Virus record (IMG/VR): IMGVR_UViG_2802429246_000012
From: a virus
Lineage: Duplodnaviria; Heunggongvirae; Uroviricota; Caudoviricetes
Length of the DNA stretch: 4,446 nt
Reading direction: 5' to 3' (one strand)
Shown here one piece after another: positions 1 through 4,446 of this stretch (position 1 is its first letter; each line of letters opens with the position of its first letter). The notes under the pieces were generated by a model, which made no database searches, was not told where the DNA came from, and saw nothing but the letters and a program-made list of their open reading frames with translations. Made by a program: the position numbers and the translations under genes.

Positions 1-192
1 ATGTTCGCGCTGGTACTTTTTGTTTGCTATCTGGACGCTGGTTGTGAAGATATTGTGGTTGATGTCTACAATACGGAACAGCAGTGCCTCTACTCAATGG
101 ACGATCAACGGATCCGCCACGGTGGCTGTTTTCCCGTTGAAGATTTCATTGATGGGTTCTGGCGGCCTGCGCAAGATTACAGTGACTTTTAA
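1..192 (+). CDS. yebW: Small uncharacterized protein, YebW-like (63 aa, 4 Cys)
   Basis: 63-codon ORF with TAA stop at 190-192, directly abutting the stop of the convergent phosphatase gene. From memory, E. coli K-12 has a 63-aa YebW next to pphA with a similar MFALVLFVCYLD start; this is recalled, not searched. The start sits at the window edge, so no RBS or promoter can be inspected. Confidence 0.5.
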   Translation: MFALVLFVCYLDAGCEDIVVDVYNTEQQCLYSMDDQRIRHGGCFPVEDFIDGFWRPAQDYSDF

Positions 193-849
193 TTACTGGA
201 GTCGTTCCAACGTGAGTGTTCCACCAAAGACCGCGCCGGTATCAATATAATGCAAGTTACCGATATCTACGCGATGACGTAATGGCGTATGACCAAACCA
301 GAAATGATCAGCGCCGGTAATTCCCTGCCCTTTTCGGCCTTCACGCAATCGCGAGCGACTCCACAACACCTGATGCAGATCGACTTCCTTATGCCACTCA
401 TAAATATCATTGGGGTAATCCGCATGGGCGATGACATGCAGTCCGCTACTACAGCTTAATTCAATTATCCACGGCAAAGACCCGCACTTTTCCAGCGCCC
501 TTCTCGCTTGCTCACGTTGGTGCTCTGTCAGTGCGGCAAACCAGTCGCCACCATTCATAAACCACAAAGACATCTGCTGCGATGCCAGCGCATCCATCGC
601 CATCTGCTCATGATTGCCTCTTACCGCCCTGACCCAGCGTTGATCCAGTAATTGCAGGCAACGCAAACTCTCCGGGCCACGATCGATAACGTCACCAACC
701 GAGATTAACAAGTCTTGCCACGGGTCAAACCGGCAGAACCATAATTTCTCTCGCAGTTGCGCCAGGCAGCCATGAATATCACCCACCAGCCAAATATGTC
801 GCCACTGACTACCATCAATTCTCTGATAGATGTGGCCTGCCTGTTTCAT
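193..849 (-). CDS. pphA: Serine/threonine protein phosphatase, PPP/calcineurin-like metallophosphatase family (PrpA/PrpB, lambda PPase-like), 218 aa
   Basis: The translation carries the three PPP signature motifs in order: GDIHG, GDVIDRG and GNHE, plus downstream HADYP and FGHTP. Length and the MKQAGHIYQRI start match my memory of E. coli PrpA. I chose the ATG at 849 because an AAGGAA Shine-Dalgarno (853-858) precedes it; the in-frame ATG at 870 has none. The symbol rests on synteny with the yebW-like ORF; PrpB or a phage-borne PPase is not excluded. Confidence 0.85.
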   Translation of the reverse strand: MKQAGHIYQRIDGSQWRHIWLVGDIHGCLAQLREKLWFCRFDPWQDLLISVGDVIDRGPESLRCLQLLDQRWVRAVRGNHEQMAMDALASQQMSLWFMNGGDWFAALTEHQREQARRALEKCGSLPWIIELSCSSGLHVIAHADYPNDIYEWHKEVDLHQVLWSRSRLREGRKGQGITGADHFWFGHTPLRHRVDIGNLHYIDTGAVFGGTLTLERLQ

Positions 850-852
850 CAA

Positions 853-858
853 TTCCTT
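853..858 (-). promoter_or_regulatory. Shine-Dalgarno (AAGGAA) for the phosphatase start at 849
   Basis: Minus-strand sequence reads GGGAGTAAGGAATTG ATG AAA CAG; the purine-rich block lies a few nt upstream of the second in-frame ATG. Confidence 0.5.
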
Positions 859-870
859 ACTCCCGCGCAT

Positions 871-1246
871 AAGATCACATTATTTTAACAAAAATGTTAA
901 AAAAGCCTGGACTGAAGCAGTAGAGTGTGTGTTATGGTTGATTGTGAAGTCAGTGAGGGAAAAGCAGTAATGCCATTATCAAACTGGCTTTATAGATAAA
1001 AAGAGACCGAACACGATTCCTGTTTTCGTCAACAAACAAGAAACCCTTTTTAAATTAATGTGTTAAACAAAATCACGCTCATCTTTTAATCCCAAACACG
1101 TACCATTGCATATTAATGCATTCAATTAGTTACCATTTTTTTCGAGTTTTTTAGAGAAAATTTCGGGACTATTTCAGACCAATCCAGGCAGAAATAAGCA
1201 ATCTATGAGTTGAATAATTTCTCAACAATTATGTAAGATTATTTCC
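871..1246 (-). promoter_or_regulatory. AT-rich non-coding spacer: presumed phosphatase promoter region and phage/chromosome junction (promoter not pinpointed)
   Basis: No ORF of 60 aa or more on either strand. Hand counts of 60-bp blocks between 901 and 1200 give roughly 28-45% GC, visibly lower than the flanking coding DNA. Several weak sigma70-like hexamers are present (for example TTGACG and TAAAAT on the minus strand) but none with convincing spacing. Confidence 0.4.
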
Positions 1247-1290
1247 GGCTGACTTTCATTCAGTTTCGCATTATCGAACGTACGTCAGCC

Positions 1291-1327
1291 AGCTGCGGCA
1301 CGTTCTTGCATACGACGTGCCGCAGCT
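1291..1327. terminator. Perfect 12-bp inverted repeat (AGCTGCGGCACG / CGTGCCGCAGCT) with 13-nt loop; putative terminator or RNA-stabilising stem-loop at the 3' end of the tail-fiber operon
   Basis: The repeat is seen directly in the sequence and starts 4 nt beyond the chaperone stop codon (1332-1334). There is no U-tract on the minus-strand transcript; on the plus strand it is followed by TCTGTTATT. It may therefore act bidirectionally or simply protect the 3' end. Confidence 0.4.
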
Positions 1328-1331
1328 TCTG

Positions 1332-1904
1332 TTATTCCACGATAAAATTCCTAACCGAATTCAAATCCTCCAGACTATTCAGTTCATCCTTCATCTCACG
1401 CTGGCGACGATATATCTCGTCATTGCGATCGACCTGTGCCTGCGCCATTGCAGTAAGCAGCTCATCCAGTTTCTGCATCGACAGTTTCACCTGCTGGTTT
1501 TCCGCATCGCCCCATACCATGGTTTTTCGCGCTGTGTCAGACTTTGATGCCATTACTGCCGGATAAAGACGAGCCATTGAGTCGGGGCCAGCATTCCAGG
1601 TACGACCGTTCCATTCGAACGTGAACGGCAGTGCTTCCTGTTCTGTTCGCCACGCCTCGATTTCCCGCTTTTTGGCATCTTTTGCCGCTGCGATAAGTTC
1701 AGGCGTGACTGTAAACGGGGCGATTTCACCCCATTTGCCGCTCTGTAACTCTTCCCAGATGCGCTGGCCTGTCGGGGCGCTATCGTCCTGCATGGCGGTA
1801 TACGGGACGAATTCCCTTTCACCTTCAAATAGCACCTCGCAGTCAACCGCACCATTTTCGAGATAATGCGCGTTTCTGATGCCTTTTACCGCTCTGATTT
1901 TCAT
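1332..1904 (-). CDS. Putative tail fiber assembly/chaperone protein (190 aa), non-canonical type
   Basis: The ATG lies 14 bp downstream of the tail fiber stop and is preceded by a strong GAGGAAA Shine-Dalgarno, the classic position of a fiber chaperone after its fiber gene. The protein lacks the C-terminal IEWP motif seen in the other Tfa here; it has a W-rich middle (EAWRTEQEALPFTFEWNGRTWNAGPDS) and a predicted helical C-terminus. Being a real gene is likely; the function is inferred from context. Confidence 0.55.
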   Translation of the reverse strand: MKIRAVKGIRNAHYLENGAVDCEVLFEGEREFVPYTAMQDDSAPTGQRIWEELQSGKWGEIAPFTVTPELIAAAKDAKKREIEAWRTEQEALPFTFEWNGRTWNAGPDSMARLYPAVMASKSDTARKTMVWGDAENQQVKLSMQKLDELLTAMAQAQVDRNDEIYRRQREMKDELNSLEDLNSVRNFIVE

Positions 1905-1918: not shown

Positions 1919-3874
1919 TTACTCGATGCGCACAAACAGGCAGATACGACCGCTTGTTCCGTAAGAGTCCCTGACCCCGGATAACGCCATATAACGCCCC
2001 GGGAAAGTGTACCCTGTAGCTCCTGCACTCGGTGTGGAACCGTAGGAGCCAGCCCCCGCAGAAGATATTGTGCACGAAAGATTAACTCCGCCCAGTTGTG
2101 ACCCTGGCACCACATCACCCAGGCCAATTTTGATTTCTTTATCCCCGGAAGTTGTTCCGCGATAAACAGCAAGCACCGGAACACCCACTGCCGGGTATTT
2201 GAAATATGAGCCTGAGCCTGCCGTTCGGGACAGCAGGAACGCCAGCGAATCGCCGTCGTAAATGATGGGGCTTACTGTTGCATTCCAGTTGTTTCCACTC
2301 CAGCGGTAAGTCAGGCGATGAATGCTGTGCTCACCTTCGTAATACTGGTTAAAACACAGCAGCATTTTGAATTTACGCGTTGTGTCCGATTCATCGTTAT
2401 CAAAGGGCGACCACATCACATCAATGATGCCGTTAAATTTTGTGGTGCCTGCCAGTAGTGTGGAAGAGTCCGCAATACTGACCGCATAACGCCCCGGGGT
2501 GGCCTCTTTCAGCCATTCAGCAAAATCGGCCTGTCCGTCAAACGCCAGAGCGTCGGTGCTGGCAAATGCCTGACCGAATCCGTACATGCCGGACAGTGCC
2601 AGCCTGCCCGGTGTGCGGTCGCGGATATCGCTCTGGGGCTCCATCGTCGCAGCCGTTTTCAGACCAAGATATTCCAGCACCTCATTTTTAGAATTCTGAC
2701 CAATTAACACCCGACCGACCGCAGTCAGATTTGCCAGCGCCATGACGTTTTTATCACTGAAATAAGGCAACTTATTACCGGCAGTAACCAGTCCTGATAA
2801 TGACGTCAGTATTTCATTAAGCGGCTGTTTACCTGCCAGGGCGTTAGTGACCGTTGTTGCAAAGTTCGGGTCATTACCCAGCGCCGCTGCCAGCTCGTTC
2901 AGTGTGTCCAGTGTTTCCGGGGACGAGTCAACCAGCGCGGCGAGCAGTTTGCGAACAAATGCCGCGTTCGCGGTTTCCAGACCGACTGCATCGTCCGGTG
3001 GGGTTGGTGTGGTTGGCGTACCTGTGAACGCCGGGCTGTCCAGTGGCGCTTTTGTTTTCGTCTCGTCCATGACGGTTTTGACAGCCTTTGGCGTGGCTGC
3101 CAGTTCCTCGCTGTCGTTGTCTGTATCACTACAGAGTTGCACCAGACCTTTTTGCGTCGTGCTGGCGTTGGTTCCTTTCAGGTCATCGACTATCCGTTGC
3201 GCCTCGTCCCTGTGCTGTTTCGCGTTCTGCTCGCTTTTTGCAGCCGCTTCGGCGCTGGCTTTTGCCTCGCCAGTCAGCGTTGCGGCTTCGTCGAGTTTAT
3301 CGACCGCTTTCTGGACTATCTTATCGGCATCTTTGACCGCCTGTTCTGCCCGGGCGGCATCCTGTGTGGCAGATGATGCCAGCTGTGCCACCTGCTTTTT
3401 ATCTTCGGCAACGGCTTCTGCATTCTGCTGTACGTTATCCGCCAGCGTCTGACAGTCTTCCTTTATCTTCTGCGCATCAGCGACATGTTGCCCGGCCTGG
3501 CGTTCGCTTTCCGCTGCTGCTTCCGCGCTCTGCTGCGCCTGCGCCACCATTTCCTCGAAGCGTTTCACCACGTCGGGTTTGAGGTCGCCTTCATCAAGGG
3601 CAGTCAGAAAGTCGTTCAGCGTGCCGGGCCTGGAGTCGTCGTATACAGCAATGTCGCCAACACAGTACTCGTCGCGCCAGTCCTGCTTCAGATATACGCA
3701 ATATTTTCCGGTCTGCGCCTTAAAACAGTACTCGCCACAGTTTCCTGTCACCACGTCGGCAACTGTGCGCATCACCACTTCTGAGGTGTTTACCCGGGAT
3801 TTCAGAATTATGTGGCATCCGGACATGGGGATGCCTGCGCCATCAATCAGCGCACCTGATATCACTACAGACAT
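1919..3874 (-). CDS. Side tail fiber protein (lambda Stf / Rac StfR-like), 651 aa, complete
   Basis: The N-terminal ~110 aa (3545-3874; MSVVISGALIDGAGIP ... VYDDSRPGTLNDFL) matches the prophage tail-fibre N-terminal domain as I recall it from StfR. Then come an Ala/Gln/Glu-rich coiled-coil shaft (about 3155-3544), the collar motif KGLVQLCSD...ELAATPKAVK (3077-3151) and the widely conserved fiber segment ANAAFVRKLLAALVDSSPETLDTLNELAAALGNDPNFATTVTNALAGKQP ... LEYLGLK (2657-2971). The last ~245 aa (1922-2656) are a distinct distal tip. Confidence 0.9.
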   Translation of the reverse strand: MSVVISGALIDGAGIPMSGCHIILKSRVNTSEVVMRTVADVVTGNCGEYCFKAQTGKYCVYLKQDWRDEYCVGDIAVYDDSRPGTLNDFLTALDEGDLKPDVVKRFEEMVAQAQQSAEAAAESERQAGQHVADAQKIKEDCQTLADNVQQNAEAVAEDKKQVAQLASSATQDAARAEQAVKDADKIVQKAVDKLDEAATLTGEAKASAEAAAKSEQNAKQHRDEAQRIVDDLKGTNASTTQKGLVQLCSDTDNDSEELAATPKAVKTVMDETKTKAPLDSPAFTGTPTTPTPPDDAVGLETANAAFVRKLLAALVDSSPETLDTLNELAAALGNDPNFATTVTNALAGKQPLNEILTSLSGLVTAGNKLPYFSDKNVMALANLTAVGRVLIGQNSKNEVLEYLGLKTAATMEPQSDIRDRTPGRLALSGMYGFGQAFASTDALAFDGQADFAEWLKEATPGRYAVSIADSSTLLAGTTKFNGIIDVMWSPFDNDESDTTRKFKMLLCFNQYYEGEHSIHRLTYRWSGNNWNATVSPIIYDGDSLAFLLSRTAGSGSYFKYPAVGVPVLAVYRGTTSGDKEIKIGLGDVVPGSQLGGVNLSCTISSAGAGSYGSTPSAGATGYTFPGRYMALSGVRDSYGTSGRICLFVRIE

Positions 3875-3897: not shown

Positions 3898-4446
3898 TCA
3901 GGAAGAGGCTTCCGGAGAGACGGGCCATTCAATGGCGTTATATGAGGTTTTATCAGTGATAATGTTGAAATCCATCGCCTGCAGCGATTTCGCGTAAATG
4001 CGGTACGCTTTCAGTTTTTCCCTGTCTTCGTCGCTGATTAATCCCAGCAGCAGGTCTTTTTCCCATTCGCTGGTCATGATGCTGACCCGTTGTGACAGGG
4101 CATCGCGCTCATCTTCCGCTTTAAGTTTGTAGTCGAAAACAAATTCATCATTGCGGTAGAACCAGTATCCCGACGCCTCAATGCGACGATTAGCGGTAAT
4201 ATCCGGCAACTCAATCACACTTTTATTTTCCGGGCAGATTGAGGTGATGTCTTTTCCAACCCAGACCACTTCGCCAGTTTCAACATAAATAACTTTCAGA
4301 GTGTCTGGCTGAAATTTTTCCTGGGCTTCGTGCCATTCCTGACCATCATCGGAGAACAGCCACAATAAAAATTTATGCTGTCGCGCCAGCTGGTATTGCT
4401 CAATTGTTTTAGGGTTTTGTACCGTAAGATTTTTTAAGTGCATCAT
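3898..4446 (-). CDS. Tail fiber assembly protein (Tfa, lambda Tfa / e14 TfaE-like), 182 aa
   Basis: The MMHLKNL start and the C-terminal stretch DREKLKAYRIYAKSLQAMD...AIEWPVSPE resemble the conserved C-terminus of lambda Tfa (...[27 protein letters not shown]) as I recall it. The ATG is at the window edge, so the upstream context and any upstream in-frame extension cannot be seen. The stop lies 23 bp before the fiber ATG. Confidence 0.85.
   Translation of the reverse strand: MMHLKNLTVQNPKTIEQYQLARQHKFLLWLFSDDGQEWHEAQEKFQPDTLKVIYVETGEVVWVGKDITSICPENKSVIELPDITANRRIEASGYWFYRNDEFVFDYKLKAEDERDALSQRVSIMTSEWEKDLLLGLISDEDREKLKAYRIYAKSLQAMDFNIITDKTSYNAIEWPVSPEASS

Follow-up and report, generated by a model that had tools for sequence, protein, structure and literature searches.

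Phage/chromosome junction beside pphA in a non-coli Escherichia: a probable hybrid attachment site in the 3' end of sdsR

The virus record IMGVR_UViG_2802429246_000012 (IMG/VR) comprises a DNA stretch of 4,446 nucleotides (nt), referred to here as the window, in which the phosphatase gene pphA and a phage tail-fibre operon are separated by a non-coding gap at positions 850-1331. In all likelihood this gap holds the tail-side hybrid attachment (att) site of a temperate lambdoid phage which is integrated in the 3' end of the small RNA (sRNA) gene sdsR (ryeB). Site-specific recombination by a tyrosine integrase would have placed the phage into this 3' end, which is also internal to the antisense sRNA gene ryeA.

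The breakpoint between phage and chromosome was located by alignment to Escherichia coli K-12 and to conspecific empty sites and falls within the gap, between 1023/1024 and 1028/1029. The exact PphA protein of the window is found in many assemblies (1047 blocks of the collection in the index), and in seven of the eight displayed places encoding it the gene order yebY-pphA-yebW-yebV is uninterrupted. Seven empty-site genomes with the identical PphA show 99.8-99.9% identity to positions 1-1028 of the window, or 99.8-100% over 1-1023, and homology ends there. In the empty-site genome L004 the segment 850-1023 is matched at 100%, the first mismatch occurs at 1024 (T for A), and no alignment is obtained from 1029 onwards. 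The K-12 genome aligns with the window from pphA to ...GATAAAAAGAGACCGAACACGATTCCTGT and diverges completely thereafter, with the endpoint inside ryeA/sdsR. Between pphA and yebY, K-12 has ryeA and sdsR (ryeB), sRNA genes that overlap each other; sdsR is on the strand of pphA and ryeA on the other. Host synteny ends inside the sdsR terminator, which corresponds to the 5' part of the antisense ryeA. To the right of the junction, 303 nt are 100% identical to E. coli ETEC4085, whereas identity to K-12 is only ~81% in the host DNA on the left. The two sides therefore differ in their history, the left one being vertically inherited and the right one mobile. The nearest species representative to the window, found by scanning the contigs of the species representatives, is Escherichia ruysiae (91% identity at the nucleotide and 92% at the amino acid level), and the host is a non-coli Escherichia lineage.

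An earlier sequence-only reading of this DNA had proposed a sharp junction beside the phosphatase gene. A junction does exist, but it coincides neither with the edge of pphA nor with the edge of the tail-fibre gene at 1331; it lies inside the gap, and the breakpoint implied before was off by about 300 nt. Alignment to K-12, which had been suggested for locating the breakpoint, places it inside ryeA/sdsR. That yebY is the neighbour upstream of pphA in K-12 had been stated correctly, but ryeA and sdsR between them had been overlooked, and the integration target, the sdsR/ryeB 3' end inside ryeA, was not recognized. The idea of a prophage end abutting a host phosphatase gene was borne out, as conspecifics with identical PphA have an empty yebY-sdsR-pphA locus. 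The gap is composed of the following features:

850-1331: non-coding AT-rich gap, 482 nt, 37.1% guanine plus cytosine (GC)
850-1023: host half of the gap with the pphA 5' region, the predicted ryeA promoter and the ryeA start; 100% identity to the empty-site genome L004
930-946, plus strand: predicted ryeA promoter core, with an extended -10 element TGtTATGGT at 930-938 and a start near 944-946
946-1023, plus strand: ryeA remnant, first ~78 nt, joined to phage DNA
998-1023, minus strand: orphan sdsR (ryeB) 3' end, consisting of the 3' half of the terminator stem and the U-tract
997-1028: att identity segment, in which attB and attP agree at 29 of 32 positions (four-way site comparison)
1024-1290: phage attP arm of the tail side, AT-rich and non-coding, missing from empty-site genomes
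1159-1167, plus strand: candidate arm-type integrase-binding 9-mer AATTTCGGG
1291-1327: strong conserved hairpin with a GC-rich stem of 13-14 bp, followed by UUCUGUUAUU on the plus strand

The low-GC spacer that had been described between the phosphatase and the tail-fibre operon is present (37.1% GC over 482 nt, in comparison to 51% in pphA and 52% in the phage genes), and three minus-strand phage genes lie beyond it. Its two halves are alike in composition, with 37.9% GC in the host part (850-1023) and 36.7% in the phage part (1024-1331), and therefore the junction is not visible from composition alone. No credible open reading frame (ORF) was found in the gap in a search for frames of at least 20 amino acids (aa), which gave short implausible frames only. 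The uniformly low GC content over 850-1331, with a sharp rise at both edges, would also suit a spacer made entirely of host regulatory DNA, namely the native pphA promoter region, with the boundary near 1331 at the stop codon of the tail-fibre operon. Such an origin is extremely improbable and is refuted by the empty-site alignment. Empty-site conspecifics and K-12 share only 850-1028 with the window, while 1029-1331 occurs in 63 of 5426 complete E. coli genomes, has prophage genes as neighbours at each of the five inspected loci and is joined to int without interruption in a phage genome. Presence of the same spacer in phage-free genomes had been named as evidence that would speak against a phage insertion; such genomes share the first 174 nt upstream of pphA, but not the other 308 nt.

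The sites attB and attP and both hybrid sites were recovered and are mutually consistent. In the four-site alignment attB reads ...ataaaaagAGACCGAACACGATTCCTGTattcggtcc... and attP reads ...ttaaaaaaAGACCGAATACGATTCCTGTtttcgtcaac... The window consists of the left part of attB and the right part of attP, and the int end of the ETEC4085 prophage consists of the left part of attP and the right part of attB. At 1012 the window still reads as host (C) and at 1024 it reads as phage (T), which places strand exchange within ACGATTCCTGT (1013-1023). The att core corresponds to the 3' half of the sdsR terminator together with the U-tract, and it is also internal to ryeA. The last 26 nt of sdsR in the window are identical to those of L004 and K-12. 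A second copy of the core was found in the ETEC4085 lysogen, which carries the identical arm (L003:11205-11224, with int at 11361-12437). In the phage PP818812 (L012) the attP region has the order int (1-1077, plus strand), 137 nt, core (1215-1234), an arm of ~300 nt and the DUF4376 gene, and the hairpin is located at 1502-1538. The motif AATTTCGGG occurs three times in the attP region of this phage, always in one orientation; two copies belong to the int side, and the third, on the tail side, corresponds to window 1159-1167. The motif is found nowhere else in 10.4 kb; 0.14 copies would be expected by chance, and none of 200 shuffles reached three. The three copies are candidate arm-type integrase-binding sites.

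From position 1000 on, the window matches the phage genome PP818812 ('vB_Apl-pPE4') at about 90%. In ETEC4085 (NZ_CP122634, ~2,211,000-2,260,000) a lambdoid prophage of ~48.5 kb extends from yebY-sdsR-int-xis to tail fibre-pphA. Starting from yebY it carries int, xis, recET, kilR, an immunity region of the ydaS/T type, replication, lysis and terminase genes, a baseplate-type tail and tail fibres, before pphA is reached. Of 5426 complete E. coli genomes, 5191 match a 221-nt probe spanning attB without a break, and in about 235 (4%) the site is interrupted. The probe for the pphA-side junction of ETEC4085 is covered in 228 of the 5426, which is near the count of split sites, and the whole 303-nt arm was found in 63 of them. 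All five E. coli loci inspected have the arm beside pphA, and the phage gene next to it varies among them (DUF4376/tfa, the invertase pin or the effector gene nleC). Since the neighbouring gene varies while the arm stays, the arm travels with the att/int module and not with the tail fibres. It is 91% conserved across seven examples. In some prophages at this att site, as in E. coli 2013C-3342 (L015, 3354-4554), the type 3 (T3) effector gene nleC adjoins the attP arm and replaces the tail-fibre chaperone gene.

An orphan sdsR core on the pphA side was also found in seven of 80 species representatives (L025, L038, L041, L044, L051, L058 and L079), which belong to Citrobacter (two), Scandinavium, Phytobacter, Trabulsiella, Silvania and Enterobacter. 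It consists of the last ~23 nt of sdsR only. Phage tail or integrase genes lie beyond this core in four of the five loci scanned (L025, L038, L058 and L079). The ORFs beyond the core in L038 and L079 look by eye like acyltransferases. The record PP818812.1 is labelled as an Actinobacillus phage with the host Actinobacillus pleuropneumoniae. This label looks doubtful, as the phage carries the enterobacterial sdsR 3' end as its attP core and shows ~90% identity to Escherichia prophages at pphA over its late region.

The consequences for the two sRNA genes were followed with Rfam models and by folding. With the model RF00111 (SdsR/RyeB; gathering threshold 38 bits) the empty site scores 114 bits and the ETEC4085 int end 118 bits, and no SdsR match was obtained in the window, even at E <= 1. 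RF00101 (SraC/RyeA) reaches 171 bits at the empty site and 23.9 bits at 994-1097 of the window, which is below its gathering threshold of 37. Complete SdsR and RyeA are detected by Rfam where the site is empty and also at the int end of the lysogen, and the window has neither in full. At a permissive threshold Rfam gave two partial matches in the window, to RyeA and to CssrB (see below); both score under the gathering threshold, and the window is assigned to neither family. For the native sdsR terminator a folding energy of -15.8 kcal/mol was obtained. This hairpin fold is lost in the hybrid sequence of the window, and at the ETEC4085 int end the terminator is rebuilt with -16.8 kcal/mol and a U7 tract. 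It can be assumed that sdsR would be rebuilt whole at the int end of the prophage.

The interval 850-1023 is homologous to the pphA-ryeA interval of K-12 by alignment, and the ryeA promoter and start were placed by alignment to the 5' end of RefSeq K-12 ryeA (L001:4067). The hexamer within TGtTATGGT is a putative assignment read from the sequence. Transcription of ryeA was described to be sigma-70 dependent, with three adjacent start sites (PMC6610125). The host ryeA promoter would stay in the gap and would now drive a chimeric transcript into phage DNA, which probably would stop at the hairpin at 1291-1327, the next strong structure of this strand. By this account ryeA appears to be cut short and joined to phage DNA. 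Relative to K-12, the window and its conspecifics have an insertion of ~16 nt (…AGTAATGCCATTATCAAA…) at 963-981, in the 5' part of ryeA. RyeA of these strains would be longer at its 5' end than that of K-12.

The hairpin at 1291-1327 folds at -28 kcal/mol on the plus strand and at -29.9 kcal/mol on the minus strand (z about -4.4), and compensatory changes are found at two stem pairs across seven sequences. On the plus strand it is followed by UUCUGUUAUU. In the free phage it follows int on the int-sense strand, with attP in between, which is the position of the tI/sib element in lambda. It is proposed to be a phage tI/sib-like element, which integration would separate from int. The terminator scan, which was defined by a stem of at least 5 pairs, a loop of 3-8 nt and at least 5 T within 8 nt, gave no canonical intrinsic terminator in 700-1500; the predicted loop of the hairpin has 9-11 nt and exceeds the limit of the scan. 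The hairpin starts 5 nt past the stop codon that closes the tail-fibre operon, and it folds equally well on the minus strand. On that strand it also resembles the hairpin at the 3' end of CssrB, an sRNA family of Shigella (RF02799, 32 bits and thus below the gathering threshold of 76; the alignment is confined to the terminal hairpin and skips 131 model positions). It is therefore conceivable, at somewhat worse than even chances, that the hairpin is merely the terminator or 3'-end stabilizer of the minus-strand tail-fibre operon and is unrelated to int or ryeA. However, a U-tract does not follow the hairpin on the minus strand, whereas UUCUGUUAUU is present on the plus strand, and the hairpin is kept, with compensatory changes, when its neighbour is pin or nleC instead of tfa. 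Conservation beside different genes implies that it travels with the att/int module. The two roles are compatible, and the hairpin may also mark the 3' end of the tail-fibre transcripts.

In K-12, pphA mRNA is mainly produced from the promoter of sdsR, a sigma-S dependent one, by read-through of the sdsR terminator, and ryeA transcription interferes with this sdsR-pphA read-through (Choi et al., PMC6610125). After integration, pphA would lose the sdsR terminator directly upstream as well as its main sigma-S promoter, that of sdsR, which would now lie beyond the prophage. Expression of pphA should consequently drop in the stationary phase. Because the sdsR promoter must lie beyond the prophage, the transcriptional input of pphA is very probably remodelled. 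A consensus scan of 700-1500 on both strands gave no promoter-like site in the phage arm, and therefore a phage-supplied pphA promoter cannot be claimed. Of the earlier suggestion that the pphA promoter might be supplied or remodelled by phage DNA, the remodelling is thus retained, through the loss of the sdsR promoter, and the supply is not. Only phage transcription on the same strand, coming from the tail-fibre operon, could reach pphA, and late read-through on induction of the phage could drive the gene. Integration could accordingly amount to a regulatory lysogenic conversion, in which sdsR is rebuilt with a slightly better terminator, full-length RyeA is lost to a chimeric RNA and sigma-S dependent pphA expression is silenced. 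We offer this tentatively, with less confidence for it than against it. If it is true, the sdsR promoter has been moved away from pphA by the length of a prophage (~48 kb in ETEC4085), and about 4% of E. coli would be natural mutants in which pphA is uncoupled from its promoter and RyeA is lost.

Several points weigh against the interpretation as a prophage junction with these consequences. The consensus scan called neither a promoter nor a terminator in 700-1500, so that homology and folding are the basis for placing the ryeA promoter and for regarding the hairpin as a terminator. Co-transcription of sdsR and pphA is known from E. coli K-12 only. The source contig (PTSO01000009.1, GCA_002965265.1) breaks off within the prophage, 76 nt beyond the end of the window. 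In the source strain the far end of the prophage, with the second att copy, would lie beyond the contig end; a full-length prophage and the second copy were seen in ETEC4085. The contig break in the prophage was probably caused by repeated tail genes.

The contig end inside the phage also leaves room for a decayed remnant beside pphA in place of a complete inducible prophage. Remnants are known at this site, for example in APEC E19057 with a truncated tfa and IS200/TnpB, and old insertions at the locus have been described in the literature for Salmonella. We consider a remnant unlikely here. None of the three phage ORFs in the window is disrupted. The arm is 100% identical to that of the full-length 48.5-kb prophage, and the window from 1000 on matches the phage genome at about 90%, both of which argue for a recent acquisition. 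In addition, a contig break in tail genes is the usual effect of repeats in draft assemblies. The remaining features of the window are the genes on both sides of the gap:

1-192, plus strand: yebW (DUF1482), host gene; 63-aa ORF, annotated yebW in E. coli
193-849, minus strand: pphA (prpA), host Ser/Thr phosphatase of the PPP family, 218 aa; identical protein in empty-site conspecifics
1332-1904, minus strand: DUF4376 protein, last gene of the tail-fibre operon; phrog_1141, E = 1.4e-87
1919-3874, minus strand: tail-fibre protein, 651 aa; phrog_2636, E = 3.5e-222; Pfam phage_tail_N and Phage_fiber_2
3898-4446, minus strand: tail-fibre assembly protein, 182 aa; phrog_136, E = 1.6e-52; Pfam Caudo_TAP

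The genes pphA and yebW are host genes and not phage cargo. The gene pphA is located on the host side of the att core, and none of the 5426 complete E. coli genomes lacks its locus. Adjacency of yebW and pphA is seen in most of the 80 species representatives, and this synteny reaches Citrobacter, Salmonella, Enterobacter and others. The identity of PphA proteins to that of the window drops with the relatedness of the host, from 92% in E. ruysiae over 80% in E. coli, 68% in Citrobacter and 66% in Salmonella to ~60% in Enterobacter, and phage proteins reach at most 52%. In a neighbour-joining tree, from which a one-residue Phytobacter artefact and a truncated Escherichia albertii sequence were left out, the phosphatases of lambda, HF4s and P1 stand apart from the chromosomal proteins in 60 of 60 bootstraps, and the window protein falls within Escherichia, likewise in 60 of 60. 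The ORF of pphA could be extended to 870; its orthologues begin at MKQ (849).

Carriage of pphA and yebW as cargo genes (morons) at the end of the prophage would be suggested by the match of PphA to the NinI-like family phrog_246 (E = 2e-84) and of YebW to phrog_1092 (E = 4e-12), and by the homologous phosphatases which are encoded by lambda, P1 and many other phages. For this prophage the cargo explanation is refuted and we give it next to no credence, since the att core separates pphA from the phage DNA and the identical PphA occurs together with yebW, yebV and rsmF in prophage-free conspecifics. The presence of the locus in every complete E. coli genome, its synteny in other genera, the separate position of the three phage phosphatases and their low identity to the window protein point in the same direction. 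A cargo origin had already been disfavoured in the sequence-only reading, and host synteny, the identical PphA in empty-site conspecifics and the position in the chromosomal clade agree with this; the clustering with phage phosphatases that was named there as counter-evidence was not found. A very old phage origin of the PphA family, or of yebW-pphA as a former phage module, is speculation. Phage homologues of YebW are rare and weak, with five Klebsiella phages at 34-37% identity.

One apparent phage match of PphA at 63% identity (OR845647.1, L099, 'Escherichia phage ECO95 1-6-1') was rejected as chromosomal DNA. It is an UNVERIFIED_ORG contig of 1.9 kb which carries yebW, and its PphA groups with that of Salmonella diarizonae (96% bootstrap). 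In E. albertii NBRC 107761 (L023) the PphA frame stops after 151 aa, and neither sdsR nor the att core nor yebY was found within 4 kb upstream of pphA. The gene may be a pseudogene there, with a different rearrangement of the locus.

On the phage side, the PHROG E-values of the three genes range from 1e-52 to 1e-222, and phrog_1141, the best PHROGs family of the DUF4376 protein, is named 'tail fiber protein'. The tail-fibre gene is a mosaic. Its N- and C-terminal parts match ETEC4085 (L002 21905-25039), and ~1.2 kb of the middle are missing (651 versus 1044 aa). The upstream tfa and the N-terminus of the fibre show 95% identity to the Shiga toxin (Stx) phage phiP27.

The biology of the junction is ordinary and was already described at a published attachment site. 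The ryeB gene is listed as a known phage target (Bobay et al., PMC3603311), and the sdsR locus has repeatedly received foreign DNA and is still an attachment site (Fröhlich et al., PMC3333887). The present assignment guards against misannotation of the gap as a pphA promoter island and of pphA as phage cargo. It also connects the ryeB attachment site with the co-transcription of sdsR and pphA, two subjects which we did not find discussed together. From this combination it is predicted that prophages at this site rewire the expression of SdsR, RyeA and PphA. About 235 of the 5426 complete E. coli genomes have an insertion at the site.

The closest known system is the phage PhiW104 of Salmonella. 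According to the review PMC7380047, with reference to Balbontin et al. (2008, J Bacteriol 190:4075), the attachment of PhiW104 takes place in the terminal 23 bp of ryeB and alters the 5' portion of ryeA; the same review describes that ryeA is lowered and ryeB is raised in the lysogen. Both phages use one attB, the final ~23 bp of ryeB/sdsR, which lie inside ryeA. As with PhiW104, sdsR would stay whole beside yebY while the 5' part of ryeA is displaced, and the site is reused by different elements. The hosts differ, as PhiW104 is from Salmonella DT104 and the host here is a non-coli Escherichia. PhiW104 and the phage of the window are likened by their site and not by phage sequence, and the effects on RyeA and SdsR in the present host are predicted ones.

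The prophage of ETEC4085 and the phage pPE4 share with the window the att core and the gene order at the end, with tfa, tail fibre, DUF4376 and att, and int is located on the other side of attP. They differ in the central tail fibre, which has 651 aa here, 1044 aa in ETEC4085 and 667 aa in pPE4. A further difference to ETEC4085 is the host flank of the window, which is only ~81% identical to E. coli.

Phage lambda offers a comparison for the arm and for the hairpin. Its attP is likewise AT-rich, with repeated short motifs in both arms. The lambda tI/sib region resembles the hairpin described here in being a strong hairpin a few hundred nt past int, across attP and on the int-sense strand, which is parted from int by integration. 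However, sequence similarity to tI/sib is absent, and processing by RNase III and binding of Int are putative for the present element. With about 300 nt the arm is also longer than that of lambda, and it ends at a tail-fibre operon and not at the b region.

P2 at ryeE/cyaR (PMC3603311) is similar in the type of its target, which is the hairpin-containing 3' end of an sRNA gene, and in the phage copy that rebuilds the gene. In contrast to integrations at the 3' ends of sRNA, tRNA and tmRNA genes, the locus described here is bidirectional: the rebuilding of sdsR truncates the antisense ryeA and detaches the downstream pphA.

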